Source: Alphaproteobacteria bacterium
Lineage (GTDB): Bacteria; Pseudomonadota; Alphaproteobacteria; CAAHEQ01; UBA3637
Assembly: GCA_015062385.1 (NCBI GenBank)
Contig: SUUT01000002.1
Coordinates: 72,229-136,228 of the forward strand
Reading direction: 5' to 3'
DNA: 64,000 nt
Shown: in pieces, positions 4,321-58,762 of the stretch
Layout of the letters: every line of letters starts with the position of its first letter
Position numbering within the stretch: position 1 is the stretch's first letter
The notes under the pieces: model-generated
Seen by the model: only the letters and a program-made list of their open reading frames with translations
Told to the model about the DNA's origin: nothing
The model's database searches: none
Made by a program: the position numbers and the translations under genes

Positions 4321-4893
4321 TTAATCACCCATTTGACGTTCTTTTTGGCTTTGCGGTATATAGGACGGAATTGATTGAGCTGGAATTTTAACCGGAGAAG
4401 GATAAGCTCCCCCAACATAATTTTTTTGTGCATGTTCCATTTTTGTTGATAAAAAGGAAATAACTTGTTTACAGGATGCTATTTCATTTTCAATATTTAT
4501 TGTTTGGTGTGAAAATGACGTATATATACCATATATTTTATCTAAATTTAATCGGTGTAAATTTTCTTGTGCACATTCAAGAGGTGTTCTGCCAAAAGAG
4601 TCTGTTGCAAAAATATCAGCTCCAAATTCTACAAAAAGTTTAACAGCATCATTCGCTCCACGGGAAGCTAATATATGTATTGCCTTTTTACCAACTGAAA
4701 ATTGAGCTTCATTAATGTCAATTTTATGTTCTGTAATTAATTTTTTATAAAAATCGGCATCATTTAAACCATTTTGAACGGCATAGTAAAAAACATCCTT
4801 GGGCAAACACCCGCCTTTTAAGCACATTTCAAACGTATAACGACTATATGCTGTTGATAATTTCCAATCTAATTCATTATTATATATATCCAT
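4321..4893 (-). CDS. Ankyrin-repeat-containing protein
   Basis: GKKAIHILASRGANDAVKLFVEFGADIFATDSFGRTPLECA matches the ankyrin consensus. Confidence 0.75.
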   Translation of the reverse strand: MDIYNNELDWKLSTAYSRYTFEMCLKGGCLPKDVFYYAVQNGLNDADFYKKLITEHKIDINEAQFSVGKKAIHILASRGANDAVKLFVEFGADIFATDSFGRTPLECAQENLHRLNLDKIYGIYTSFSHQTINIENEIASCKQVISFLSTKMEHAQKNYVGGAYPSPVKIPAQSIPSYIPQSQKERQMGD

Positions 4894-7812: not shown

Positions 7813-8015
7813 TTTTTTCTCCTTTCAGCCATAAAAGAGTATAAGAAGACATACAGATAAAATCAAGTATTCTTTTTATGGGGATTTACAAACATTTTTA
7901 TTGTTGCTTTTTGAATGATATAGAAACATGATGCTTTCAGTTGTTTCGGACTTTTTTTGTTTTTTGCATTTGTAGGGCTTTTTTATTCCAACAACTTGAG
8001 TCCTTGTTGCTCTAT

Positions 8016-8056
8016 CGTCACCCCGTACTCCGATACGGGGTCTTGTTGCGATAATG
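8016..8056 (-). repeat. Single degenerate CGTC-type REP-like palindrome related to the 199-bp repeat unit
   Basis: Minus strand reads cattatcgcaacaagaccccgtatcggagtacggggtgacg, versus repeat unit cattatcgtgacgagactccgtgtcggggcacggagtgacg. Confidence 0.7.
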
Positions 8057-8362
8057 GCAGTACATATTCTCAAAAAAAATAAATAAAAAATAGGGAAAAG
8101 AAAAAGTGAACAACAGGAAAAGGGGCATAAACGAACGTATAACGATAATAAAGGAGTACGGGGAGGGGATAAGGATAAGGAAAAAGAGGGTATTTAGAGT
8201 AAAAATAAACGAAAAAGAGAGGTAAAAAAACAGCAGGGGATAAACGAGAAGAAAAATACCTGTAAAAAATCGTATAAAATATTGAAAAGAAAGGAAAAAA
8301 GACTTGATTTTTTTGAAGAAAAAGGGTAAATTGAGGTGTAACCAAAAATAAATGGAGGAAAA

Positions 8363-8731
8363 ATGAAGAAAATATTGTTAGTAATGGCTCTTTCAATGGT
8401 GTTGCCAAGTGTGGCTTTGGCTGCTTGTGAGGGGGGCGAAGAAATTACCGGAAAAAACGGTCAAAAATACTGTGTTAGTAATCAAACGATGAATTGGTGG
8501 AGTGCGTTTGCATGGTGTAAAGCAAATGGTCTTCATTTGGCAACGTTAGATGAAGCATGTAATAACCAAGCTTGGTCAGGTGGTTGTCCAAATATAAATG
8601 TAGGTATAAATAAATGGGCATGGACGGCAATCGCATCGGGGGACAGTGCCGCCTATGCCGTTAATCTTCTCCATCGTGGTAATGTGTCCACCTACGCACG
8701 CACCGACAACTACTACGCCTTATGTTTATAA
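8363..8731 (+). CDS. DGR target protein: small secreted C-type-lectin-fold protein with C-terminal variable region
   Basis: Sec signal MKKILLVMALSMVLPSVALA; CLec-like MNWWSAFAWCKANGLHLA...WAWT...YALCL; 3' end is the VR matching the TR. Confidence 0.92.
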   Translation: MKKILLVMALSMVLPSVALAACEGGEEITGKNGQKYCVSNQTMNWWSAFAWCKANGLHLATLDEACNNQAWSGGCPNINVGINKWAWTAIASGDSAAYAVNLLHRGNVSTYARTDNYYALCL

Positions 8732-8744
8732 CCCCGCTTTTAAA
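8644..8744 (+). repeat. DGR variable repeat (VR) plus IMH
   Basis: Aligns to the reverse complement of 11240-11337. 14 substitutions, all at TR adenines, plus one 3-nt insertion. Ends in TAACCCCGCTTTTAAA (IMH) versus TAACCCCGCCTTTAAA in TR (IMH*). Confidence 0.96.
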
Positions 8745-8763
8745 CCACTACTTAAAAGAGTTT

Positions 8764-8793
8764 AAAATCCGCCTGATTGGGCGGATTTTTTTT
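8764..8793 (+). terminator. Hairpin after VR (intrinsic terminator and/or DGR target-recognition hairpin)
   Basis: AAAATCCGCC-tgattg-GGCGGATTTT followed by a T run, 20 nt after the IMH. Confidence 0.75.
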
Positions 8794-8972
8794 GTCCCTT
8801 TTATTAAAAAAAAGGGACAGGCAACAAAAGCCGACTCTCCCCACACGGGGACCGTGTGGGGAAAAAAATAAAAGCAAGGTATTTTGAAAATTTATGACAA
8901 GACGACGGATTTTAATTTTATCAACAAACATCTTTATATATTCCTCAATGACAGCAGGTATTTTATACCTAC

Positions 8973-9753
8973 CGTCATACTGAACTTGTTTCAGATTTGC
9001 AACGGGGGGGATAAATCTTTACATTTACGTCATGCCGGATTCAGTCCGGCATCTCGGGAAGAAGTGGCAGGAATGATGAGCCATTATCGTGACGCGACTC
9101 CGTGTCGGGGCACGGAGTGATGGTAGGACTAAAAATCGGAACAAGCCCGAAGTGACGTTTTCACTATCCATCGTCATGCTGAACTTGTTTCAGATTCGCA
9201 GCGGGGGGGATAAATCTTTACGTTTACGTCATGCCGGATTCAGTCCGGCATCTCGGGAAGAAGCGGCAGGAACGCTGTGCTATTATCGTGACGAGACTCC
9301 GTGTCGGGGCACGGAGTGACGGTAGGACTAAAAACCGGAACAAGCCCTGAGTGACGTTTTCACTATCCATCGTCATACTGAACTTGTTTCAGATTCGCAT
9401 CGGGGGGGGATAAATCTTTACATTTACGTCATGCCGGATTCAGTCCGGCATCTCGGGAAGAAGTGGCAGGAACGCTGTGCTATTATCATGACGAGACTCC
9501 GTGTCGGGGCACGGAGTGACGGTAGGACTAAAAATCGGAACAAGCCCGAAGTGACGTTTTCACTATCCATCGTCATACTGAACTTGTTTCAGATTCGCAA
9601 CGGGGGGGATAAATCTTTACATTTACGTCATGCCGGATTCAGTCCGGCATCTCGGGAAGAAGTGGCAGGAATGATGAGCCATTATCGTGACGAGACTCCG
9701 TGTCGGGGCACGGAGTGACGGTAGGACTAAAAATCGGAACAAGCCCGAAGTGA
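8973..9753. repeat. Tandem array of about 4 copies of a 199-200 bp unit built from CGTC-type REP-like palindromes
   Basis: Units start at 8973, 9172, 9371 and 9571. Each has CGTCAT(A/G)CTGAACTTGTTTCAG, CGTCATGCCGGATTCAGTCCGGCATCTC and GACTCCGTGTCGGGGCACGGAGTGA. Confidence 0.95.
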
Positions 9754-9911
9754 TGGTGGAACTAAAAAGGGTATGAAGTGACGAAAAAAATAAAAACAAG
9801 GCAGGGAGTGACGGAGCAGATAAAAAGGGTTTGGGATGATGAAGAAGATAAAAAGGACGCAGGGATGTTACTTAAAAATATAGATGATTGTCACGGCAAA
9901 GGTAAAAAGAA

Positions 9912-11225
9912 TCAATATTTATTTGCAGTGTGACAGATATTTTTTTTATTGTGTCGATTTTTTCTTTTGATATCGGGACGAGCAAAAGAAGTTAAGCGTT
10001 GTTGTTTTTTGAGTTTCAGCTTGTTATTCAGGATAGGGTCAACGGAAACTTTTGTAAAGTTCATATCTGCCGAAAATACTTCCCGAATTTCGGAACAAAG
10101 CATATTCCATGCCTTTAATTTAACTCGCCAACAATTAAAATGACGCAAAATGCCAAAATAAGAATTAAGTGTTGAGCGTGTTTTTTCAATTAATATTGTT
10201 TTGCTTTTGTGTGACATTGGTTGTTTCCATTCCTGATTTAAACGTTCTATTCTTTGGTAAAAAGTTTTTTGTAATCGTTTTGACGGATAGATACGATTGG
10301 GCAAAATATAGGCTCCGGTAAAGGAAAATCCTTTGGCATAATGTTGCAATGACACTTTTTTCGGATGAATGGTTAAATGCAATTCGGATTTTAAATAGTC
10401 AGTGATTTGTTGTTTGACCCGATGTAAAAAATCTTTATCCGGATGAATAAAAATCAAGTCATCAACATAACGGGCATAAAACAAATTCGCATCTAATGAG
10501 GTGGCATAATAATCAAAATCGTTCAAATAAAAATTGGCAAAAATCTGACTGGTTAAGTTGCCGATAGGCAATCCGCAATTTGTATTGGCAAAAAACAAAC
10601 TTTTTGATTGTGGTAATTCCGCCCAGTCTTCTATCGGTGTTTGATAATTGCAGTGACGAATAGGGTTGTCCGATAAAATTTCTTTCAAAAGATATAAAAT
10701 CTGTTCTTTGTTTGTGTGATGATAGTGCGTATTGACCAGCGTTTGGATTTTATTGAACAAAATGGTTTTATCAATGTGAAAGAAAAATCCCTGAATATCC
10801 AACCGCAATACAAAACAATCTTGTGTAAAATGGTTCGAACACGCTTGAAGCATTTCATAAACGGAACGAATGCCAAATAGTGTTCCTTTTCCGGCCCGAC
10901 AACTGTAAGAATGTTCGTAAAAAACATTTTCAAACAATCGAAGCAGTTTACCGATAACCAAATGATGAACAATCCTGTCCCGAAAGTTTGCCGCAAACAC
11001 TTCTCTCAGGACAGGATGCCTGACAATAAAGGCATTAGACGGGGCAATATGATATGTATGTGCCGTGATGTCTTGCCATAAGTTAATCAGATTTTGCTCA
11101 TAGTTTGCTTCAAACTTTAATGCTGCCATGCTGTGACGTTTATGTCTTCTGCAATCAAAATAGGCTTGAAACACTTCTTCCAAAGTAATATCCGATAATA
11201 AGTGATAAAAAGTAAGTTGTTCCAT
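9912..11225 (-). CDS. DGR reverse transcriptase
   Basis: REVFAANFRDRIVHH, LDIQGFF, GLPIGNLTSQ (the SQ variant typical of DGR RTs), RYVDD; adjacent TR and avd. Confidence 0.96.
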   Translation of the reverse strand: MEQLTFYHLLSDITLEEVFQAYFDCRRHKRHSMAALKFEANYEQNLINLWQDITAHTYHIAPSNAFIVRHPVLREVFAANFRDRIVHHLVIGKLLRLFENVFYEHSYSCRAGKGTLFGIRSVYEMLQACSNHFTQDCFVLRLDIQGFFFHIDKTILFNKIQTLVNTHYHHTNKEQILYLLKEILSDNPIRHCNYQTPIEDWAELPQSKSLFFANTNCGLPIGNLTSQIFANFYLNDFDYYATSLDANLFYARYVDDLIFIHPDKDFLHRVKQQITDYLKSELHLTIHPKKVSLQHYAKGFSFTGAYILPNRIYPSKRLQKTFYQRIERLNQEWKQPMSHKSKTILIEKTRSTLNSYFGILRHFNCWRVKLKAWNMLCSEIREVFSADMNFTKVSVDPILNNKLKLKKQQRLTSFARPDIKRKNRHNKKNICHTANKY

Positions 11226-11239
11226 AGTGACTTTTTTAT

Positions 11240-11337
11240 TTTAAAGGCGGGGTTATAAACATAAGGCGTTGTTGTTGTTGGTTCGTGTGTTTGTGTTCAC
11301 ATTACCATTATTGAGATTAACGTTATAGGCGGCACTG
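11240..11337 (-). ncRNA. DGR template repeat (TR)
   Basis: AAC/AAT-rich (in VR frame SAAYNVNLNNGNVNTNTRTNNNNALCL*), located between avd and RT, homologous to VR 8644-8744. Confidence 0.96.
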
Positions 11338-11458
11338 CACCGCTATAAAGTTGGAGGATTACCGCCTCCACGGGTAGTCAACACTGTTTTATATACCAAA
11401 CAAACGTTCGGTGATTGACCCTTTTAAAATAAAACACTTGCTCGCTCAAGGTAACGAT

Positions 11459-11845
11459 TTATTCATTCTCCTTGATTCCGGCACTTGTTTTTAACTGTTG
11501 CTTTCTCCTTTCCGCTTTGTACCAAGCACTTGCTTGGGAGGTAATTGATTCCATTGTTTGTGCCAAATAGGCTTGTGCCCGACAACTGATTAAGTTTAAA
11601 TCTGCACATAGTCTTAGGCAAACCCGTGTCTTTTCCAGTTGAAACATAAAGGTGTTGATGTGTTCCGATTTGTCTTCGCTGTGGTTTGCTCGTGATATTA
11701 TGGCACATAGTTCTAAGGCACTGTCGTTAAGCGTGTTCCCCAATGTATATTTATGTTCCCGTGAAAATTTTGTCGTGTACTGATGTATATCCCGTATCAG
11801 TTGATACGTTGCTATGTATATCGGTAATTTATCACTGCGTGTCAT
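11459..11845 (-). CDS. avd: DGR accessory variability determinant (Avd, four-helix bundle)
   Basis: LPIYIATYQL...KFSREHKYTLG...RVCLRLCADLNLIS...QASAW. Start set at ATG 11845, with a GGAG RBS overlapping the end of the upstream pilin-like gene. Confidence 0.9.
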   Translation of the reverse strand: MTRSDKLPIYIATYQLIRDIHQYTTKFSREHKYTLGNTLNDSALELCAIISRANHSEDKSEHINTFMFQLEKTRVCLRLCADLNLISCRAQAYLAQTMESITSQASAWYKAERRKQQLKTSAGIKENE

Positions 11846-11853
11846 AAAATGGT

Positions 11854-13635
11854 TTACTCCACAACAGGGCATTCGCCCAAATCATTTAAGTTAAAGTACA
11901 TATCCAAACAAACGCCCCACAACGGATTACTGCCTTTGGCATCAACCGTATCGGTACAGCCTTTTGATTTAAAGTTCATATAACAATATTGTTTTCGAGG
12001 GCAATCTGTTTGAACGGATAACATTTTTTCCAAATCAGGCATTTCCATTTCACAAGACGGATTTTTATTATTCATATCGGCACAAGCCCCGTAAATAATA
12101 CCCGTATAATTAGCACCGGCTGCTCCGGTACATGTTTCTGTTGTGAATGACAGATAACAATATTGACCTTTGGGACAATCGGATATGGATTGTACCATTT
12201 CTTGTGCATCGGGTAAATTAAGAGAGCAGGATGGATTTTTGTTATCCATAAAGGCACATACTCCATGAAGTGTTCCTGTGTGGTTTGCACCGGCGGCAGA
12301 GGTACACGTATTGTTTTTAAATGACAAATAACAATACTGACCATTCGGACACCCTTTGCTTTCTTTGACCATTTCTCCCGAAGATGGCATATCCGTTGAG
12401 CAAGAGGGATTTTTATTGTTCATATCGGAACAAACACCATAAATCGTTCCCGTATGGTTTGCTCCGGCAGAACTCGTACAAGAATCGTTTTTAAATGACA
12501 GATAGCAATATTGTCCGCTAGGGCATCCGTTAGATTGTGTCACCATATCCCCCTCAGAAGCCTTTTGAACGGCACAGGAAGCGTTTTTATTGTTCATATC
12601 GGTACAAACCCCATAAATGGTCTCTGCCCCCGTTGCAGACACGCTGGAACTGCAATCTGACGTTTTAAATGATAAATAACAATATTGTCCACTGGGGCAA
12701 GCAGTTCCGATAGTCATATTAAGTGTTTCTCCGTCTGATGCCAATCCGTTTGTATAAGAGCAATTTGTAGTCAATGTCATTGTATCTGATGAAACAGTAA
12801 AAGCACAATTTGTATGCATACCCATTGTTTCATCCGAAACTTCATAAGAACAATTTGTACTTAACGTCATTGTTTCATCGGATATCCGATAGGAACAGCC
12901 GGCTTTTCCTTTCATTTCGGCATTTTCAAAGCTGTATTTGCAAAAACCATCCGATTCGGGACATTCATCAACATTTTGTCCGCAAATTGTATTGCCTCCA
13001 CAGCACCAACGCCGTTCTCCGGACCAGCATTCACTTTCATTTTCGGCATCACAAATCGGATTGCAAAATGTGCGGGATTCGTTGGGTTCTTTTCCGACAG
13101 GACATTCATAACAAGTCCCCGTATTGGCATTGCAGTATCCGCCTTCCGATTCAACACATTCTTCGTTTGTTTCACAATCTTTACCGGGGGCACGTGTGCC
13201 GTTAAAGGCAAAAATAATATCCATTGGTTCCGGTGTACAACTTGTTACGGCACCGATCGTTGTTTCTTCATGTTCAATTTCTTGATAAAAAGATAATTGT
13301 TCATTGTTGCCCAGTTGCATAATCAGTTGGCACATTTCATTATCTATATTTTCAACAAGAACAAAGGTATCGCCGTCTTCATCTTTTCCGGTAAACATGT
13401 TGTATCCGCATTTGGGGGTAAAATCAACCGGTGTCCAATTGGTTTCTGCCTCGTTAACCCCTTGTGCATTGGCATAGGCGATATGTGCTTCTTGGATTAA
13501 TAAATTAGCGGTATATTTTTTCATCGCATAGCGATATCCTAATATCCCGCAGACAGATAAAATACCGATAATGGCTAAAACCCCTAGAATTTCTACCATA
13601 CTTCGTCCGGCTTGTGCGTTCTTGTATTTTTTCAT
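11854..13635 (-). CDS. Type IV pilin-like N-terminus, Cys-rich repeat surface protein (first gene of the DGR operon)
   Basis: Prepilin-like AG|RSMVEILGVLAIIGILSV; five ~58-aa CPxGQYCYLSF...YGVCxDMNNKNPSC repeats. Confidence 0.85.
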   Translation of the reverse strand: MKKYKNAQAGRSMVEILGVLAIIGILSVCGILGYRYAMKKYTANLLIQEAHIAYANAQGVNEAETNWTPVDFTPKCGYNMFTGKDEDGDTFVLVENIDNEMCQLIMQLGNNEQLSFYQEIEHEETTIGAVTSCTPEPMDIIFAFNGTRAPGKDCETNEECVESEGGYCNANTGTCYECPVGKEPNESRTFCNPICDAENESECWSGERRWCCGGNTICGQNVDECPESDGFCKYSFENAEMKGKAGCSYRISDETMTLSTNCSYEVSDETMGMHTNCAFTVSSDTMTLTTNCSYTNGLASDGETLNMTIGTACPSGQYCYLSFKTSDCSSSVSATGAETIYGVCTDMNNKNASCAVQKASEGDMVTQSNGCPSGQYCYLSFKNDSCTSSAGANHTGTIYGVCSDMNNKNPSCSTDMPSSGEMVKESKGCPNGQYCYLSFKNNTCTSAAGANHTGTLHGVCAFMDNKNPSCSLNLPDAQEMVQSISDCPKGQYCYLSFTTETCTGAAGANYTGIIYGACADMNNKNPSCEMEMPDLEKMLSVQTDCPRKQYCYMNFKSKGCTDTVDAKGSNPLWGVCLDMYFNLNDLGECPVVE

Positions 13636-13667
13636 ATTTTCTCCATAAGTCTTGTTGCATATTAATG

Positions 13668-13826
13668 AGTGTAATAAAAGGTACGTATAATTGCAACATT
13701 TTTTTTCACATTTTTGAATTTTTTTTGATTTTTACTAACTAATTCAATAAAAACAATAATTTTTCATTTTTGAAAAAAGTCGATTTTTGAGATTCGAAGC
13801 GGGAAAAAAAGGTACGTTTTTGTGCA
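13668..13826 (-). promoter_or_regulatory. Putative invertible promoter, copy 1, ON orientation for pilin-avd-TR-RT
   Basis: IR cores AAAAGGTAC (13676-13684) and GTACGTTTT (13812-13820); interior 13685-13811 = 127 bp. Minus strand reads TTGCAA (13696-13691), 17 bp, TACACT (13673-13668). Confidence 0.85.
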
Positions 13827-13923
13827 TATATCGTTTTTAACGGATGATATTTTGATGTTAAAATTATTATGTTATGATGAGATTCTGAGTAAATTTGAAT
13901 ATTGATAACCCTTTGATATCTAT

Positions 13924-14012
13924 GTTAATATGAACTTGTTTCAGATTCTTGGGAAAAACCGGCACAAACGATGTCCCATTATCGTCATGAGACTCCGATT
14001 TTGGGCATGGGA
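13924..14012 (+). repeat. Degenerate remnant of the REP-like repeat unit
   Basis: tgaacttgtttcagatt...cattatcgtcatgagactccgattttgggcatgg resembles the unit at 8973-9753. Confidence 0.65.
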
Positions 14013-14069
14013 TAAAAGAAGAAATACAATAAAGGGGAATGTTTTCTCGCTAAACTGTCAATATACAAC

Positions 14070-14097
14070 AATCCCCCGATTGGGCGGTCGGGGGATT
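14070..14097. terminator. Hairpin terminator after aas
   Basis: AATCCCCCGAT...GTCGGGGGATT. Confidence 0.7.
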
Positions 14098-14102
14098 AAA
14101 TT

Positions 14103-17100
14103 TTATTCGGTTACCAATTTTTTGGCTGTTTGATAATCAAACTTGCCTGTTCCTAACACTGGCGGTTGTTTCATATAAATAACTTTTTTCGGTACCCATA
14201 ATTCAGATAAACCTGTCTTTTTAAAATATGTTTGAATTTCTTTTGTTGATGCATTCTCTGCTGCCGTTACTAAAATCAATTGTTCGCCTTTTTTTGCATC
14301 GGGCAAGGTAATAATACCTTGTGTGATATTCGGATACATTTTTTCCAAAGCTTGTTCAACGGCTGTTAAAGATACCATTTCGCCGGCAATTTTGGCAAAA
14401 CGTTTGGCTCGTCCTTGAATGGAAATAAAATCATTTTCATCCAAAGAAACAATATCCCCTGTATTGTACCAACCATTTTTTGTCGGTTGCAAAACATTTG
14501 GTTTTTCGGCTTTCATATATCCTAACATAACATTATCGCCTTTTACCCACAGTTCACCACCGGTTTCAATACCTTCAATTGGTTTAATTTTCATTTCCAT
14601 CCCCGGTAATAAACGACCAACTGTTCCGTATTTTAGATACATAGGCGTATTTAAAGAAATAACGGGTGCAGTTTCTGTTGCCCCATAGCCTTCCAAAATC
14701 CGAACCCCGAATTTTTTCATCCATAAATCAGCAGTTGTTTCTTTTAGTTTTTCACCACCGACAATCGCATATTTTACACCAAAGAAATCAAACGGATTTG
14801 CCATGCGACCATAGCCGGAAAGGAATGTATCCGTTCCACAAATAATGGTTGCGTTTGAATCGTATGTTAATTCAGGCACAATTCGATAATGCAGTGGGGA
14901 AGGGTAATAAAATGTTCTAATACCCGATAGTGTTGTCATAATAGAACCGACACACAAACCGAAAGAGTGGAACATCGGTAACGCATTGAAAAATGTATCC
15001 GATGCGTTGACGCTTAAAACAGATAAAACCTGATTGCGATTTGCCTGAATGTTTTTGTGTGACAGTAAAACAGCTTTCGGCATTCCTTCTGAACCGGAGG
15101 TAAATAAAACAACTGCCGGTTTCTGCGGGTCGTTTTGCGGACGTGTCTGTATGAAAGCATCCAGTATGCCTTTTAATTTTGATCCCAAAGTGATTTGAGT
15201 AGCAAAATCTTCCATATAAACAACGTTAAATTCGGTTTTTAAGGCTTCTTCTAAATGTTCCAGATGTCCCAGTTGAATGAATTGACGAGAGGTCAGAATT
15301 GTTTTTAATCCGATTGTTTTTCCACTGGAAACAAGTTGTGTCGGTCCCAGTGAAAAGTTCATCATAGCAGGAACTTTGTCAATGCTTTGTAAGGCAAAGA
15401 ATGAAACCAGATTGACCAATGAGTTTGGCAATAATAAACCGATTTTGTCTTCATTCGGAAATGCTTTTTGAAAAGCTCTTCCCAAAACATAAGCCTTTGT
15501 TATCATTTTTTTGTAAGTCAACGGAACACGTTTAATATCTTCGGCAATTTTATGTTTTTTACCATATGTGTGCATGGCATCCAGTAATGAATTAAACAAG
15601 TGTTCATTTAAATCTGATGTTTGATACATCATATCGGTCATAATATCATATAATTGTTTAGAAATAAATGTTCTTCTATCTCGTCCGAAACAATCTTCCG
15701 GCACGTTTAAAACGGTGGGTTTAAGCAAGGTTAACGAAATATGCGGGAACAGACGGGTTTTATATTTTTTACCCATATACGAAAATTTTGAAAATTGAGC
15801 ACCTTTAATCCGAATTGGTACAATTTTGGCTTCGGCTTTGGCGGCAACCACACCGGCCCCCTCATAAATTTTCATTAATCCGCCGGAGGTAGTAATACGT
15901 CCTTCCGGAAAAATCATCACTTTTTTGTCTTTTTTCACTTCTTCAATCAATGACCGAATGGCCATCGGATTGGTCGGATCTAACGGATATAAATCAACCA
16001 GAACGGAAAATAGGCGAATATACCATTTTTTTGCCCATTCTGTATTAATGGCAAATGTGATTTTTTCAGGCATATAAGCAGCAACTAAAATCCCGTCTAA
16101 TAATGAACAATGATTGGCAATTAATAAAACCCGTTTACCGGCTTTGTGGAAATTTTGGATGTTATAAATCCGAATGTGAAAAAGCGGGCTTAATATAATC
16201 CGTAAAACAGATTTTAATGTTTCATGAGACAATAATTGCATAATGTAAACAGAAACAATCAAGCTCATAACGGCAATAAACAGGAAAAGTGAGGGAATGG
16301 AAAAGCCCATACTTAACAAACCGGCTGAAATGATTGAAATAACAGCCATTCCGAACGAATTAACAATATTGTTGCCGGCAATAACAGATGCCGTACAAGA
16401 TTTAGGAGCGTACGTTTGAATAAAAGCATTAAGTGGAACAATATATAATCCACCAAAAAATGCCATAGCAAACATACAAACGGATAACGCAATACCTCCA
16501 TTAAGCAAGAAAGCAACTAATCCGAAACTTTCGCTCGGGGCTTGATAATTTTTGGTTAAGAAATAAAAGATTAATCCGCAAACGGCCATAGCCAAAGATG
16601 TTAATGGAACATAGACGGCAGAAACAACACCTTTCAACAACTTATTGCAACTGACAGACCCGACACCGACTCCGATAGAGAATAATAATAAAAAGAAAGT
16701 AATCACATGTTGTTTGACGTTTAATACCTGACTGCATAGTGGGAAAATTTGAGTTAGGATTAAAGCTCCAACCGTCCAAAACCAAGTTGCTCCTAAAATG
16801 GATTTCCAAACAATGGGATAAGTATGAATAAGTTTTAAATTGCTGACTGTTTCGGCAAAAATATTTTTACGAATCGTTAAGGTTGGACGTGGAGCTTTTG
16901 CCGTTGGAATGTATCGGGCAGAAATGTATCCGATAACCGAACAGATAATTAACAGGACTATTGCAGTATTGATGTTTAAAATCGTGCCTAAAACAGCTCC
17001 TAAAATAATGGAAACATAAGTTGAAGCTTCAATATAACCATTTCCTGCAAGTAATTCATTTTTCTTTAATAATTGTGGTAAAAGAGCGTATTTTATTGGG

Positions 17101-21794: not shown

Positions 21795-24245
21795 ATGAGG
21801 TATTCAAATACAGCAATTACAGAACTTTCAAAAAAATATCGTACAATTTTGAAAAAATGTGCCATTTTAAATGCAGTTGCATTATTGGCTTTATCCACAC
21901 CGGCTATGGCAGCTCAATATGGTATTGCCGTGACAGAAAGTAGAGTATACACAGAATCTGCTTTTACAGGTGATGATGTTGGTATTTATTCGGGTAGTGG
22001 TGCAACTGGTACATTTACAGCCGAAGATATTACTGTTACAGACAGTTTAAGAGGGATTCTTGCAAAAGGAACAGAATCAAAAATTGTTATTGGTAGTGCA
22101 AGTGATTATACCAATAGTTTAACCATTTCTAATAACAATACAGAATCCGGAATTCATGATCGAGGTATTCGTGCCGAAAATGGTGGAACAGTTGAAGTTT
22201 ATACGGATAATTTAACAATTACCGGTACAGATACCTCTTATGCATTACATGCAAGAGGTGGGGACGATTCTTTAACAACAAAAATTGTAGTGAATGCTAA
22301 AAATGTAGATATTACAAGCAAAGATTCTCCAGCAGTTAATGCAAATAATACAGGAATCAGACCGGAAGAAACTTATGCAACAACACAAGTTGATATTGTA
22401 GCAGATAATATTAATATTTCTTCTGATACAACGGCAGTTTCTGCTATGAGCCAAGGAATTGTTAATATTACGGGTAACACAGTTTTAAATGCTGAAAACG
22501 CTATTTTAGGTCGTGGTGATGCACAAATTAACATTAACACAACCGACTTGACTAAAACGTTGGTAATGAATGGTAATATTGATTTTGATTATGATAAAAA
22601 AACATCAGACTCTGCTATTAATGCTTTCATTAATGTTAATTTGAATGGTACTTCTTCTTCATGGACGGGAAATACTGTTAAAAGTTGGGGTGATGATGAA
22701 CCAGAAGATCCTAATAAGTTAATTGTTTCTGATGCAACAGTTACACTTAATGACGGGGCAACTTGGAATGCAACAAAAATTACAGCAACTGATACAATGA
22801 AACAAACCGCATTAAACTACTTAATTGTTAAAAAAGGTACAATTAATGTTGCAGACGGGGCCACTGCTTTGGTTGGCGATTTAACGGTAACGGACTTAAC
22901 GTTAAATGGTATGGTTGAAGCTGATACAGCTACATTTGAATCCGGTTCAAAATTAACAACTGCTTTGGATGATACTGTTAAAATTAAAGCTAAAAAAGTT
23001 ACAATTGGTGATGGTTCCACATTGAACTTAATCATTGATGGTGCCGTTGAAGAAAAATCATATAACTTTATTGATTCCGCAGATATTACAGGAGCCTTTA
23101 CAATTGCTGATAACGGTTTATATTCTTTCACACAAGATGAAACTGGTACTATTACGGCAAGTCAGAAAAATGCTGATGAAATTGCAGCAGATACAGGGGC
23201 TTCTGCTCAGGAAACAAGTGCTTTATTAGCAATGATTAATGCGGATGGATCAAGTACGGAACAAGGTAATGCATTAGCTTCTGCTTTGTCAACGGCAATG
23301 CAATCCGGTGATGCAGCAGTTGCTGTTCAGGCTGCAAAAGAAGCTGCTCCGACAACAGCACAAGTTGTGACAGGTTTAACCAAAGAAACTGCCAATACAA
23401 TTGCACAAGTTTCTACGACTCGTTTAGATTCTATTAAAGGAACAAGCGGTGGTGATACGGTAACAGGGGCCGGTTTGTGGGTTCAAGGATTATATAACCA
23501 TACAAAACAAAGCACAACATCTTCATCTGATGGATTCAAAGCAAATTCACGTGGTTTGGCTGTTGGTGCCGATGCAGAATTATCCGAAACAACAACGTTA
23601 GGTTTGGGGTATGGTTATATGGAAACAGATGCTGATACTACCGGTCGTGATATTACAGTTGATAGTCATAATGTTTTTGTTTACGGAGAATATCAACCGT
23701 CTGAATGGTATGTTAATGCTGTTTTAAATTATGGGTTCTCTAAATACAAGGAAGATAAGGCTCCATTGGGTGTTGCATTAAAGAGCAAGTATGATGTTAA
23801 ATCATATGGAGCAAGCATTATGACCGGTTATGATTTTGATAACGGTATTACACCGGAAGCAGGCTTGCGTTATTTGATTGTTGATGCTGAATCATACAAT
23901 GATGGTGCACAAGACATTAATTCTAAAAAGAATGATATCTTAACAGCCGTTGCCGGTGTTAAATATACAGCTAATGTCAAAGCTGACAAAGCAATTTTAA
24001 AACCGACTGTTCGTTTAGCCGCAACATACGACATTGTTTCTGATAGTGATGAAGCAAGTGTTCAAGTTTTGGGTGGTGGTAATTATACCATTAACGGACA
24101 GCGTTTACATCGCTTTGGTGTAGAAGCCGGAGCAGGTGTGACAGCAACTGTTAACAACTGGGATTTCACATTAGAATATAACGGTGCTTTCAGAGAAGAT
24201 TATCGCTCACAAGGGGGTATCGTCAGAGCAAGATACAATTTCTAA
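21795..24245 (+). CDS. Autotransporter (type Va) with beta-helical passenger
   Basis: Extended signal peptide; Thr/Asn/Gly-rich passenger; C-terminal barrel starting LWVQGLYNH and ending GIVRARYNF. Confidence 0.92.
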   Translation: MRYSNTAITELSKKYRTILKKCAILNAVALLALSTPAMAAQYGIAVTESRVYTESAFTGDDVGIYSGSGATGTFTAEDITVTDSLRGILAKGTESKIVIGSASDYTNSLTISNNNTESGIHDRGIRAENGGTVEVYTDNLTITGTDTSYALHARGGDDSLTTKIVVNAKNVDITSKDSPAVNANNTGIRPEETYATTQVDIVADNINISSDTTAVSAMSQGIVNITGNTVLNAENAILGRGDAQININTTDLTKTLVMNGNIDFDYDKKTSDSAINAFINVNLNGTSSSWTGNTVKSWGDDEPEDPNKLIVSDATVTLNDGATWNATKITATDTMKQTALNYLIVKKGTINVADGATALVGDLTVTDLTLNGMVEADTATFESGSKLTTALDDTVKIKAKKVTIGDGSTLNLIIDGAVEEKSYNFIDSADITGAFTIADNGLYSFTQDETGTITASQKNADEIAADTGASAQETSALLAMINADGSSTEQGNALASALSTAMQSGDAAVAVQAAKEAAPTTAQVVTGLTKETANTIAQVSTTRLDSIKGTSGGDTVTGAGLWVQGLYNHTKQSTTSSSDGFKANSRGLAVGADAELSETTTLGLGYGYMETDADTTGRDITVDSHNVFVYGEYQPSEWYVNAVLNYGFSKYKEDKAPLGVALKSKYDVKSYGASIMTGYDFDNGITPEAGLRYLIVDAESYNDGAQDINSKKNDILTAVAGVKYTANVKADKAILKPTVRLAATYDIVSDSDEASVQVLGGGNYTINGQRLHRFGVEAGAGVTATVNNWDFTLEYNGAFREDYRSQGGIVRARYNF

Positions 24246-34175: not shown

Positions 34176-36389
34176 TTAATCTATAACACAAAGTGCAGGA
34201 TAGGAATTTGTCGTATAAGTACCATCTATATTGCCGAATTCCAGTCCTACCTGATATACTTCGCAAGATGTATATACTTTATCAAGCCAGTAAAAATCAT
34301 CTCCAACTTTACCAAAGGCTTCCCATAATCCGGTTACAATTTTTGATATATTATCCTTAACATATGCGTTTGATCCAATTGCTTTATAATGACAATATCC
34401 CCATCGACCTAACCCGTCCATGCAATGCATATCATTTGAACCGGCAACTCGTCCGCCAATAGCTTCACAAAAACGATTAGCACTCCACCAAGTCATTTCT
34501 AAATTTGGAGTTCCATAAAAAGTTTTTGTTCCCGTCACTTCTCTGCCATAACCGTCATAGTGGGTCCAGTTGATAGTTGCTTGAATTGCATCATCTTTTG
34601 CTACACGACAAATTCCCGTATCAATAAAAGGTCCTTCAAATTCTATACCACAAGCATATCCCTTCTTTTGATAGCAATAATATCCGTATTTTCCGTCTTT
34701 GTTACAATCGGCATTTGTTGTGCAATATTCAACACATTCTTTTCCATTCCAACGTGTTCCGTCCAAGCAAGGTACACACACATTCATTTTTAAATCACAG
34801 GTTGGTTTTGTTTCATCTATACAATGAGTATTATTTAAGCATTCGGAACACAAACCCGTATCGGCACAATATAAACCCATATCACAATCATCATTTGTTT
34901 CACAAGATGAACAAGTTCCGTTTTTACAAATATTTTTACCAATTATTTCAGTGCAATCATCATGAGATAAACACAATACTTGTTCTTCAGGTTCAATCCC
35001 TTCAATAATCGCATCATCAACACATAAAGCATAATATCCCTCTTCCAGAATTTCTCCATCTATATTTCCGTATTCCAAACCGATACCATATCCGGAACAC
35101 TCATCAATAATATTAGAAAACCAATACCAACCACCATTTAATGCGGTTTTTAATTTTGTTACAACTGTTGAAATATTACCATCTTGCCAAGCATTTGATC
35201 CGATATATTTTTTATGACAATAGCCCCAACTTCCCACATTATCTGCACATTGAAAATCTGTTGTGGTCACTTGTCTTTTTCCAATGCTTTTACAAAAACG
35301 ATTGGCACTATGCCAAGTCATTTCTAACTCCGGAACGGCATAAAAATTTGTTGTTCCATATGTTATTAAGCCTTTTGAGTCTGTTTTGTTCCATTTAACA
35401 GTTACTTTTTTCATATCATCTTCTGCAAAATGGCATTCTCCTTTATCTTCACGAGGTCCATAAAATTCATATCCGGAACAAGCATATCCTAGTGCATTAT
35501 AACAGTAATAACCTGTTCTGCCGTTTTTGTTACACTCCTCATTTGTTTTGCAAGGTAAAACACACCGTTTTCCATTCCATTTTTCTCCATTCGGACAAGG
35601 TTCACACGTACTTGTTTTTGTATCGCAATAAGGTTTAGAGGCATCTTTACAATCTGCATAACTTTGACACTCTACACATCCTTCCGCTGTTTCAATAGGT
35701 GTTTGACGTGGACATTGACATATGTTATCAATCCATTCTTTGGGCGGATAACACCACTCACAATTGTCCCCAAATTCATATTCATGCCGACAAACACATC
35801 CGTATGTCCCATCATCTTTTTGTCGCCATGCCATTTTGTCCGGACAAGATTGTGGTTCACTGCTTGGATTGTCATCCGGCATATCCGAACCACCGCTTCC
35901 GCCATTTCCACCACTACTTCCCCCATCAAAGTGAGAACCGGATTCAACAGTCGGAGTTGCATTAAAGGAAAACACCATATTTGTTTTGCTGTTTGGGTTT
36001 CCGCACATTCTTGTTAAAATAGAAATACCCATCTCATTTAAAATGCTTTCTCTTTGCAGGAGTTTTTCACAAACTTTATAAACCACTTTAAATGCTGTTA
36101 CTTGATAATTACCATCAACGAGCTTGACCATAGATTTTTTATCATCCGGTGTATATTCAGGTAGGGCAGATTTTAAAAACCGATTAACCTCCAATGCATG
36201 AGAAGCCCGAGAATCCGTTTGAGCCAATGTTTTAGCCTTGCCAAGAACATCTTGAATTTTACCGGATTGATAGGCTGTTAAGGCATATTGATACATACCG
36301 ACACCGGCAACGGACAAAACGCCGATAATTGCCAATACACCTAGCATTTCTACCATACTCCGACCGGTTTCATTGATTTTGATTTGCAT
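34176..36389 (-). CDS. Type IV pilin-like N-terminus, Cys-rich stalk, two tandem C-type-lectin-like domains
   Basis: TG|RSMVEMLGVLAIIGVLSV; duplicated module with EMTW(H/W)SANRFC...Y(Y/P)ALCV resembling the DGR target. Confidence 0.85.
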   Translation of the reverse strand: MQIKINETGRSMVEMLGVLAIIGVLSVAGVGMYQYALTAYQSGKIQDVLGKAKTLAQTDSRASHALEVNRFLKSALPEYTPDDKKSMVKLVDGNYQVTAFKVVYKVCEKLLQRESILNEMGISILTRMCGNPNSKTNMVFSFNATPTVESGSHFDGGSSGGNGGSGGSDMPDDNPSSEPQSCPDKMAWRQKDDGTYGCVCRHEYEFGDNCEWCYPPKEWIDNICQCPRQTPIETAEGCVECQSYADCKDASKPYCDTKTSTCEPCPNGEKWNGKRCVLPCKTNEECNKNGRTGYYCYNALGYACSGYEFYGPREDKGECHFAEDDMKKVTVKWNKTDSKGLITYGTTNFYAVPELEMTWHSANRFCKSIGKRQVTTTDFQCADNVGSWGYCHKKYIGSNAWQDGNISTVVTKLKTALNGGWYWFSNIIDECSGYGIGLEYGNIDGEILEEGYYALCVDDAIIEGIEPEEQVLCLSHDDCTEIIGKNICKNGTCSSCETNDDCDMGLYCADTGLCSECLNNTHCIDETKPTCDLKMNVCVPCLDGTRWNGKECVEYCTTNADCNKDGKYGYYCYQKKGYACGIEFEGPFIDTGICRVAKDDAIQATINWTHYDGYGREVTGTKTFYGTPNLEMTWWSANRFCEAIGGRVAGSNDMHCMDGLGRWGYCHYKAIGSNAYVKDNISKIVTGLWEAFGKVGDDFYWLDKVYTSCEVYQVGLEFGNIDGTYTTNSYPALCVID

Positions 36390-57376: not shown

Positions 57377-58762
57377 CTACTCTGTTAAGCAATAATCCAC
57401 AACCTTATGAAGTTTAAAATTCATACTGCCGCAGTTATTATCACATTCATTATCCCAAAATTGAATGGTTATATCTGCCAAGCCATTAAATGTAAAATAT
57501 TTAATCGGTTGATTTCTTAATGCATTTGTTACTTGTTTAGTTGTTCCAACATTATATCCCTCACCATTTCCCACAAAATCAGAATCTTTATTAATAATAT
57601 ATCCTAAATTTTTTGTACCCTCAAATACATATGTTGCAAAACCGACCCGCTTCGTCTTACAATTATAATAATGGTATCCATCAACCCATTCAAAATAATA
57701 TGTCCCTTTTAGTTTACCTAAGTTATTTGTTGTAATACGGCACTCCCAAACAGAACTATTAATTCCGGTTGAAGCAATATCCATTTCAACCACATCTTCT
57801 GTTTTACAAACACATTCGCCATTTTGATTGGGTTCTAATTCATATTTTGATGTATCACAATAACACACACATGTTTCCCCATCCTGAATCTGTCCCGTTG
57901 GACAAGATGTTGCACACGGCGTACACATTTTTGTTATTGCATCCCAATGTATTTTATCTGTCGGACAAGATTCACACATATTGTTTGTTCCGCATACCGG
58001 AGTCGGATTAGCACAATCATCATTCGTTAAGCATTCCACACACTTTTCATCTTTCCAAATCGGAGAGAAATCCGGACAGCGACACATTACTTCATCTTCA
58101 AACCATTCTTTGGGAGGATAACATCGTTCACAATTATCCCCGAACTCATATTCATGCCGACAAATACATCCGTATGTACCGTCTTCTTTTTGTCGCCATA
58201 CCATTTTATCGGGGCAGGTTTCCGGTTCAATATTTGGATTATCTATATCCGGCAGATTCGAACTCCCGCTTCCGCTATTTCCGCCCCCATTTCCTCCGCC
58301 AAAGTGAGAACCGGATTCAAATGTCGGTGTTGCATCAAAGGAAAATACCATGCTTGTTTTATTGTTTGGGTTTCCACACGTTTTTGTTAAAATTGAAATA
58401 CCCATATCATTCAATATACCTTCCTTTTGAAAGAGCTTTTCACAAATTTTATGTGTCATCTTAAATGCCGTTACCTGATAATTGCCGTCAACCAATTTAA
58501 CCATAGACTTTTTATCATCCGGCGTATATTCGGAAAGTGCTGACTTAATAAATCGATTGACTTCTAAGGCATGTGAAGCCCGAGAATCTGTTTGTGCCAA
58601 TGTTTTGGCTTTTCCGAGAACATCCTGCACTTTGCCGGCTTGATAAGCCGTTAACGCATATTGATAGGTTGCAACACCCCCAACGGATAATACCCCGATA
58701 ATTGCCAGAACCCCCAGCATTTCCACCATTGAACGACCAAGTTCATTTATTTTAGTTTGCAT
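57377..58762 (-). CDS. Type IV pilin-like N-terminus, Cys-rich stalk, distinct C-terminal domain
   Basis: LG|RSMVEMLGVLAIIGVLSVGG; first ~220 aa highly similar to the 34176-36389 protein, C-terminus unrelated. Confidence 0.85.
   Translation of the reverse strand: MQTKINELGRSMVEMLGVLAIIGVLSVGGVATYQYALTAYQAGKVQDVLGKAKTLAQTDSRASHALEVNRFIKSALSEYTPDDKKSMVKLVDGNYQVTAFKMTHKICEKLFQKEGILNDMGISILTKTCGNPNNKTSMVFSFDATPTFESGSHFGGGNGGGNSGSGSSNLPDIDNPNIEPETCPDKMVWRQKEDGTYGCICRHEYEFGDNCERCYPPKEWFEDEVMCRCPDFSPIWKDEKCVECLTNDDCANPTPVCGTNNMCESCPTDKIHWDAITKMCTPCATSCPTGQIQDGETCVCYCDTSKYELEPNQNGECVCKTEDVVEMDIASTGINSSVWECRITTNNLGKLKGTYYFEWVDGYHYYNCKTKRVGFATYVFEGTKNLGYIINKDSDFVGNGEGYNVGTTKQVTNALRNQPIKYFTFNGLADITIQFWDNECDNNCGSMNFKLHKVVDYCLTE

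Follow-up and report, generated by a model that had tools for sequence, protein, structure and literature searches.

Among the diversity-generating retroelements (DGRs) already described, the closest to the one analysed here, found in a 64,000-nucleotide (nt) stretch from an uncultured gut alphaproteobacterium (the window; G000:C9:72229-136228), are those of the Legionella type with CLec2/DUF1566 targets, placed in category 'd' by Wu et al. 2018 (PMC5758913). In what follows, positions are those of the window unless a contig is given, and G denotes genomes, C the contigs of G000, L related loci, P proteins from elsewhere and X sequencing runs. The Legionella-type elements share with the window a chromosomal, non-phage set of avd, template repeat (TR) and reverse transcriptase (RT), a variable repeat (VR) at the C-terminal end of a short exported one-domain lectin-fold protein with conserved cysteines, a GC inverted repeat after the sequence for initiation of mutagenic homing (IMH), and the possibility of remote targets. 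They differ in that their targets belong to Pfam Lcl_C, whereas the window protein has no Pfam match, and in that the Legionella protein LdtA is a lipoprotein, whereas the window family reads, by eye, as a substrate of signal peptidase I. The DGR of Treponema denticola (TvpA and remote targets; PMC5758913) likewise has one TR for scattered paralogous CLec targets, although the targets here are about one third of the size and the family reaches up to 26 copies per genome, few of them live.

Two further comparisons concern pili. The DGRs of the Bacteroides type V pili have in common with the window the gut habitat, the non-phage location and a variable C-Lec head tied to pilus subunit genes, and they also include a small stand-alone form consisting of the head only, as here; in contrast, the pilin-like protein of the window is probably of type IV (class III signal, long N-terminal helix) and not of type V, and the head is a separate polypeptide beside the pilin-like gene and not the pilin's own C-terminal domain. 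A comparable arrangement is that of CofB-CofJ of enterotoxigenic Escherichia coli (ETEC; PMC6048534) and TcpB-TcpF of Vibrio cholerae (PMC9565799), in which a large minor pilin at the tip is accompanied, at the same locus, by a small Sec-exported binder.

Considered only as a DGR, the element is of a known kind, since small bare targets, remote targets, gene orders, indels and GC repeats are all found in Wu et al. 2018 (PMC5758913): the targets gathered there range from 44 to 2697 amino acids (aa), with bare Ig or C-type lectin folds at the lower end, the gene order varies, and 45 of 372 DGRs have non-adjacent targets. The rarity that a first-pass annotation of this DNA had implied for its convergent, small-target architecture was therefore overrated, as most of it appears in that survey and the convergent form recurs in relatives. 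As a DGR, then, it adds little in principle, being clean, complete and evidently recently active, with every architectural feature catalogued; its value would lie in giving entry to an unannotated lectin-fold family and in a genetic link, through synteny and fusion, to type IV pilin-like proteins.

We consider it very probable that the window carries an intact, recently active chromosomal DGR, complete between 8363 and 11872. The minus strand bears, in this order, BIG, avd, a spacer of 121 nt, the TR, 21 nt and the RT gene, while the plus strand, convergent with this cassette, bears the open reading frame (ORF) of the 122-aa target, whose 3′ end is the VR. The features are the following:

8363-8731, plus strand: target gene, 122 aa, with a single compact C-type-lectin-like domain after a signal-like N-terminus of about residues 1-21
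8644-8737, plus strand: VR, 94 nt, running from the 28 final codons through the stop to 6 nt beyond it; exceeds the TR by one codon
8717-8744, plus strand: candidate IMH, the invariant VR 3′ end GCCTTATGTTTATAACCCCGC, then T, then TTTAAA
8764-8789, plus strand: GC-rich hairpin, AAAATCCGCC-TGATTG-GGCGGATTTT, about 30 nt after the target stop
9912-11225, minus strand: RT, of DGR type by context and best PDB match, 437 aa, intact; PF00078 at E 5e-17
11240-11264, minus strand: IMH*-like copy at the TR 3′ end
11247-11337, minus strand: TR, 91 nt, with 34 A and 11 AAY codons; single copy in the genome
11459-11872, minus strand: Avd accessory protein, ORF of 137 aa; PF22296 (bAvd) at 44.9 bits against a cut-off of 40
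11854-13635, minus strand: BIG, 593 aa, probable type IV pilin-like protein with Cys-rich repeats; first gene of BIG-avd-TR-RT

One line of evidence for this reading is the relation between the two repeats. When TR and VR are aligned with one gap of 3 nt, they differ at 14 positions, all of which are TR adenines, and at none of the 57 non-A positions; the probability that 14 of 14 mismatches fall on A at random is about (34/91)^14, in other words ~1e-6. The first-pass annotation had given the codon strings of both repeats, and had counted 11 AAY codons in the TR and 14 substitutions among the 30 adenines upstream of GCC TTA TGT, with no non-A change; the strings are present in the sequence and the counts agree with ours, made by hand on the alignment. 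Its description of a complete DGR (none of RT, Avd, TR and VR is lacking, and the VR mismatches are confined to A), convergent with its target (target on the plus strand, avd-TR-RT on the minus) and chromosomal with no phage genes nearby, is equally sound, as no phage families occur among the family-matched ORFs of at least 120 aa between 197 and 28601. Absent from that description is the extra VR codon (CTT/TCT), inserted after GTT AAT.

The identity of the repeats continues past the stop (TAA CCCCGC), after which the VR has T and the TR has C, and then comes TTTAAA. The candidate IMH is identical in all three VRs that we find in G000 and is separated from the TR copy by this single T/C, a difference also present in L002, L004, L022, L009 and L003, and the last 21 nt of the VR together with CCCCGC never varied. 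These 3′ ends fit the IMH versus IMH* pattern, and an IMH function may be proposed for them by analogy with the phage BPP-1 (PMC5758913). The GC hairpin stands after the VR, with none after the TR; in relatives a hairpin is found at the equivalent place after the VRs with different stem sequences, and at the two remote targets of G000 it has the same stem and no T-run after it (n=2). It is a candidate for a terminator-like element, for the inverted repeat of DGR target recognition, or for both.

The proteins of the cassette agree with this picture. The RT has YVDD and IGNLTSQ and no internal stop, as read from its translation, and among solved structures it comes closest to 8ub7_A (E 3.9e-24), an entry of 328 aa named 'Reverse transcriptase' that we take to be the RT of BPP-1, the best match to a group II intron RT (E 2e-7) being 17 orders weaker. 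The BPP-1 RT is 328 aa long (PMC11661182), in agreement with 8ub7_A. Both RT and Avd have one match each across the genome G000, and avd is likely to start at the Met at 11845 (128 aa), because the matches in relatives begin at residue 10. By analogy with BPP-1, avd, TR and RT would be co-transcribed on the minus strand, the RT with Avd would copy the TR RNA into cDNA, misreading adenines, and this cDNA would replace the 3′ end of those targets that present the IMH-like end (GCCTTATGTTTATAACCCCGC-T-TTTAAA) followed by the GC hairpin. One TR would serve at least three paralogous targets, the adjacent convergent gene and two remote ones, each of them a putative Sec-exported protein of about 120 aa with one compact C-type-lectin-like domain, likely to act as a hypervariable ligand-binding module at the cell surface.

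Recent activity is indicated by the comparison between samples, for which the data were assembled Logan contigs of four runs from four studies, all of animal gut or faeces. In run X7, from a different study, a contig of 598 nt with a depth of 4.7 spans 8144-8744 and has 16 differences from the window, one of them (8149) in the ~500 nt outside the VR and the other 15 inside it, in 8658-8706; mapped on the TR/VR alignment, the 15 all fall at TR-adenine positions. This contig also lacks the extra codon, its VR length being reset to that of the TR. Two near-identical strains carry, therefore, VRs separated by A-specific changes, of the sort that the first-pass annotation had proposed to look for, and with one difference outside against 15 inside, the VR has changed on the time scale of strain divergence. 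The TR adenines, for their part, are constant across three species, while the VRs differ exactly there: in the same-genus genome G036, where BIG-avd-TR-RT is 96.7% identical, the TR has two changes, neither at A, and the TRs of two further species, whose RTs are ~83% identical, keep all 30 adenines upstream of GCC.

Gaps at the VR in the other three runs were considered as a trace of heterogeneity and set aside, for although they are compatible with it, the depth and the holes of contigs cannot show it. No contig of X10 covers 8668-8714; in X6 a contig ends at 8657, with a separate piece of 117 nt bearing the window VR at a word depth of 4.54 against 10.9; and X15 offers only short pieces, which belong to paralogues. 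None of these runs carries weight. Contig ends at the targets of relatives were dropped in the same sense, being mostly cuts of the 5′ flank (the BIG side); in G000, by contrast, both contig breaks fall inside VRs.

These breaks concern the remote targets. The genome G000 (1.81 Mb in 45 contigs, 35.5% G+C, 99% complete, 0.5% contaminated) was searched with the TR by blastn-short, as had also been suggested, and the 3′ end of every paralogue of the target was aligned directly; two further VRs on other contigs match the TR, and the assembler broke inside both:

C6:5359-5448, minus strand: remote VR, 8 mismatches where the sequence is resolved, all at A sites; N run inside the VR
Last 36 nt of C24 plus first 51 nt of C10: remote VR, 13 mismatches in the 87 of 91 positions that it covers, all at A sites

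Both keep the post-stop CCCCGC-T-TTTAAA and the hairpin. The adjacent gene stands as a target, but where the first-pass annotation had seen one target the genome has at least three. The target family as a whole is encoded at 10 places in G000. The closest paralogue of the window target, at C36:29460-29822, is 63% identical and ends in a VR-like sequence whose match to the TR has been lost, which makes it a candidate for a recently retired target.

Outside G000 the target family is wide. A word-indexed search returned 62 relatives of about 120 aa, and an exhaustive one 678 cluster representatives at E<=0.001, of which 356 reach E<=1e-10; 47 related loci lie in metagenome-assembled genomes titled Alphaproteobacteria, from the guts of roe deer, goat and other animals. 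Within the same family-level group, 55 of 80 genomes encode the target family, at up to 26 places per genome. An RT orthologue is present in 16 of the 80, spread over 7 of 16 genera, and each of these genomes carries the target family as well. The order BIG-avd-TR-RT-target is kept in L002 and L020, and L018 has avd-TR-RT-target on a contig that starts inside avd; the target is convergent, as in the window, in L036, G047, G048 and G027, and co-directional in G034, G010 and G018.

The VRs of relatives were judged against the TR of their own genome, with 24 loci compared. Five have no non-A mismatch (with 15 A-site mismatches in L002, 13 in L022, 12 in L009, 9 in L020 and 11 in L036), three have one to three (L001, L003, L004), and the remaining 16 have at least 10. 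Five of the eight clean or near-clean VRs exceed the TR by 3, 6 or 12 nt, and two of these five fit, read by eye, the duplication of a TR repeat unit followed by A-mutagenesis. Longer VRs are also a wider observation, made in L001, L003, L009, L012, L022 and the window (8665-8670), where the excess is of 3, 6, 9 or 12 nt and always in frame. Some of these VRs read as a TR repeat unit that was duplicated and later A-mutagenised, suggestive of template slippage by the RT, the cause to which TR/VR indels in 25 DGRs have been attributed (PMC5758913).

Alternative explanations for this pattern are that the element is a fossil, or that reverse transcription has no part in it. According to the former, a once-active DGR would now have a dead RT, and the differences between TR and VR and between samples would be old segregating alleles. 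Such an origin would accommodate the in-frame stop (TAG or TAA) borne by four of the 16 RT orthologues of relatives (G036, G018, G003, G075), which could reflect decay of the element, sequencing error or recoding, as well as the many paralogues with decayed VR-like ends and the variation data, which are contigs only and leave the within-sample level out of reach. However, RT, Avd and TR are intact here, the three VRs have no non-A mismatches, when a long-dead element would have gathered ordinary substitutions as C40 and C11 have done, and the X7 contig sets one difference in ~500 nt outside the VR against 15 inside, all of which makes a fossil very unlikely. Less credible still, and in our view close to negligible, is an origin of the VR differences in recombination or gene conversion between members of the ~10 paralogues; the family is indeed encoded at 10 places that share a conserved 3′ end, at two of which the assembler broke, but conversion would import non-A differences, and the mismatches to the TR fall on A in 14/14, 8/8 and 13/13 cases, and in 15/15 between samples, while none of the three VRs copies another.

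The reading of an intact and recently active DGR has, nevertheless, to bear several points that weigh against it. The assignment of the RT to the DGR type rests on context and on the best match in the PDB; Avd scores 54.2 bits on the DGR Avd model NF033474, under its cut-off of 80; and a VR with one codon beyond the TR is not a plain TR copy. The hairpin at the adjacent target is followed by a T-run and may be a terminator alone. The stops in the RT orthologues indicate that the element decays in the lineage, and most of the paralogues in G000 (C36, C11, C40, C1, C26, C41, C12) either end in a VR-like stretch with numerous non-A mismatches or lack any TR match, these seven being either retired targets or never targets. 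The alternative VR of X7 is one contig at a depth of 4.7, and single-contig differences under a depth of 5 may be errors, although fifteen errors all on TR-A sites would be implausible; being contigs only, the data give VR differences between samples and not within a sample. As for the role of the target, export is read by eye and ligand binding is putative.

The target protein itself begins with MKK, a hydrophobic run and ALA-A, which, read by eye, agrees with the first-pass description of a secreted protein of 122 aa. A lipoprotein was also considered, as LAAC fits a lipobox; with K or D as the residue before the Cys in most homologues, and with LPAM_1 touching only 7 of 38 family members (best E 0.061), cleavage by signal peptidase I is preferred. 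The AlphaFold2 (AF2) model, built on an alignment of 38 sequences, has a mean predicted local distance difference test (pLDDT) of 85.9 and a predicted template modelling score (pTM) of 0.75, residues 1-20 being of low confidence. Compared with 48,161 chains by VIA-align, it matches 55 at Z>=8, and those listed are essentially all C-type-lectin-like domains (CTLDs) or Link modules: the best is Ly49L4 (Z 10.7, root-mean-square deviation (rmsd) 2.6, 91 aligned), followed by the C-terminal domain of Bdellovibrio Bd2740 (Z 10.6, rmsd 2.6, 90 aligned) and by LLT1 (Z 10.5), these three aligning over 85-91 residues at rmsd 2.3-2.6. With Foldseek only two chains of the Bd2740 C-terminal domain come at E<=0.001, then CTLDs of natural killer (NK) receptors, and the C-terminal domain of Legionella Lcl (8q4e_A) at rank 10 (E 5.7e-3, TM 0.42/0.39). 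Mtd, TvpA and other solved DGR variable proteins are not among the matches listed by Foldseek or VIA-align, no direct comparison with them having been made.

Thus, a bare CLec-like domain of about 100 aa after the signal, as proposed in the first-pass annotation, is borne out by the CTLD fold of the model, with Z up to 10.7, and the annotation's own refuting case, a fold other than CLec, did not arise. The name of lectin is another matter: EPN/QPD and WND are the sugar and calcium motifs of true C-type lectins, and the strings EPN, QPD and WND are absent from the 122 residues, so that the label holds for the fold and not for these motifs. At the level of sequence, the window target has no significant match in Pfam or NCBIfam (no Pfam family at E<=0.1), the profile of its family finds nothing better than E 0.24 among PDB sequences, and none of the 38 family members matches Lectin_C at E<=1. 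Three of the 38 match Lcl_C/DUF1566 (PF07603; best E 0.053), and one ESM Atlas cluster (score 0.92) has Lcl_C on 13% of its members, which would make a distant relationship of the family to Lcl_C possible. Six cysteines are conserved in the family, with C52 and C121 invariant in the 38 sequences, and these two may be paired in a disulfide, from helix 1 to the C-terminal strand. The A-bearing codons of the TR (11 AAY and 5 other) map to residues 95-118 of the target, where enumeration gives 8.9e15 possible peptide variants on a fixed scaffold.

The gene that opens the cassette adds a second subject. The N-terminus of BIG, GRSMVEILGVLAIIGIL as read from the translation, includes a stretch like a class III signal, G10-RSMV-E15 and then ILGVLAIIGILSVCGILGY, in which R11, E15 and L17 are invariant in 13 homologues. 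TIGR02532, found at one place elsewhere in the genome, does not match BIG, whose best NCBIfam match (E 0.0064) is far under the cut-off. The AF2 model of residues 1-150 (pLDDT 82.9) has a helix of 46 residues (13-58) and a sheet of five strands, and its top three matches among the 48,161 chains are type IV pilins: 9iuf_A (ETEC type IVb, Z 8.0), PilA1 of Clostridioides difficile (7.4) and TcpA (6.6); further matches are PilS at rank 5 (5.7), TcpB at rank 7 (5.4) and CofB (4.8). These matches are middling (Z <=8, best Foldseek E 0.02) and, taken with the N-terminus, they make BIG a probable type IV pilin-like protein. The likeness to CofB-CofJ and TcpB-TcpF is one of arrangement and of BIG model matches. 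We know of no DGR in either system.

Pilus machinery is present in the genome, with a prepilin peptidase (PF01478, C3:29636-29962), T2SSE ATPases at three places and a secretin (C8:23404-23994). An N-terminus like that of BIG (G-RSMVE and a hydrophobic helix) is encoded at 103 places in the 1.81 Mb, three of them in the window (BIG itself, 35955-36386 and 58427-58753), so that type IV pilin-like genes are expanded to an extreme degree. Two such genes lie just upstream of the prepilin peptidase gene on C3.

The association of BIG with the target family goes beyond the window. In G000 a BIG paralogue adjoins a target paralogue on seven contigs (C6, C40, C11, C24, C41, C1, C12), and among the 47 related loci BIG is adjacent to the target in 25 (17 upstream in tandem, 8 downstream and convergent), with one other arrangement and 21 loci without BIG, 15 of which have less than 1.6 kb of upstream flank. 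Five proteins (P0071, P0176, P0205, P0213, P0214) are fusions of a pilin-like N-terminus with the lectin-fold domain, with or without a Cys-rich linker and with one or two copies of the domain; the N-terminus of P0176 is 33% identical to that of BIG over 147 residues (E 2e-19). In P0212 a signal peptide and a Cys-rich region accompany the lectin-fold domain. When a complex of BIG (60-593) and the target (22-122) was predicted, the score was 0.32 against 0.05 for the best of three controls, with at least 70% contact agreement between runs and pLDDT of at least 81 for the partners; the mark used is reached by 58 of 80 solved complexes and by 2 of 110 mismatched pairs, and scores of 0.60 or less take in only 7 of the 80 solved complexes and both of the passing mismatches. 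The prediction gives weak support to binding.

Two roles are thus conceivable for the lectin-fold proteins. In the first, they would be detachable hypervariable heads for the type IV pilin-like BIG proteins: BIG, with its pilin N-terminal domain and Cys-rich repeats, would serve a type IV filament as tip or minor pilin, and the neighbouring Sec-exported lectin-fold protein of about 100 aa would dock on BIG, giving a ligand-binding surface rewritten by the DGR. The synteny (L002, L020, L036 and the window, the seven contigs and the 25 of 47 loci), the five fusions and the weak complex score support such heads, which we put forward tentatively, with rather more doubt than trust. In the second, the proteins would act alone as soluble periplasmic or secreted binders, and the adjacency of BIG would reflect co-regulation or shared ancestry. 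They do have a Sec-type signal of their own and no pilin N-terminus, and they resemble BovT and BfiT, small periplasmic DGR proteins of Bacteroides (bioRxiv 10.1101/2024.11.15.621889); they stand in tandem with BIG at some loci and convergent to it at others, so that co-transcription is not a conserved feature, and the complex prediction was weak. Proteins acting alone would, however, leave to be explained the 25 of 47 loci with BIG adjacent, when 15 of the 21 without it have such a short upstream flank, the seven contigs of G000 where the paralogues adjoin, and the five proteins that place the lectin-fold domain behind a pilin-like N-terminus, and this second role seems to us a serious possibility that stops short of being probable.

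If the proteins were heads of this kind, a DGR would be tied to type IV pili for the first time, and the variable adhesin would consist of two polypeptides. If the link were physical, the diversification of pilus tips by DGRs, known for type V pili in Bacteroides, would extend to a second, unrelated class of pilus, and it would suggest how gut bacteria with small genomes change the objects of their attachment. In the literature searched, which excluded supplementary tables and subscription papers, we found no work linking a DGR with a partner of the type IV pilin kind, nor any on the DGR of this alphaproteobacterial family, although Table S1 of PMC5758913 or the target clusters of PMC8144416 may list it. 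In any case, the target family is unannotated and has few live DGR targets per genome, and since only a few copies are live, the gain and loss of targets can be followed in it.

The surroundings of the element are those of a chromosome: the family-matched ORFs of at least 120 aa between 197 and 28601 are all housekeeping or cell-envelope genes (iPGM, histidine kinase, peptidase U32, ankyrin, uridine kinase, peroxiredoxin, Aas acyltransferase, PFOR, autotransporter and lytic transglycosylases). Near the DGR lie an autotransporter of 816 aa (21795-24245; PF03797, E 3e-41) and an ankyrin-repeat protein of 190 aa (4321-4893), which further suggest a lifestyle of interaction with hosts or surfaces. 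One more feature lies between the target and RT genes:

8973-9753: tandem array of a 199-nt unit, 3.9 copies, units 94% alike; not a recognised DGR part

The same unit forms diverged arrays at C33:7770-8468, C40:126091-126697 and C10:293-502, one of the three just downstream of a remote DGR target. The unit folds no better than its shuffles (z -1.1 and -1.3), and Rfam, run on 8000-14500, gives only sub-threshold terminator-like matches, with none on the array. Finally, an element of 41 nt at 8838-8878, with the palindrome CCCCACACGG...CCGTGTGGGG, finds matches among separate short contigs in each of the four runs and recurs downstream of the remote target on C10, and is thus a dispersed repeat resembling repetitive extragenic palindromic (REP) sequences.

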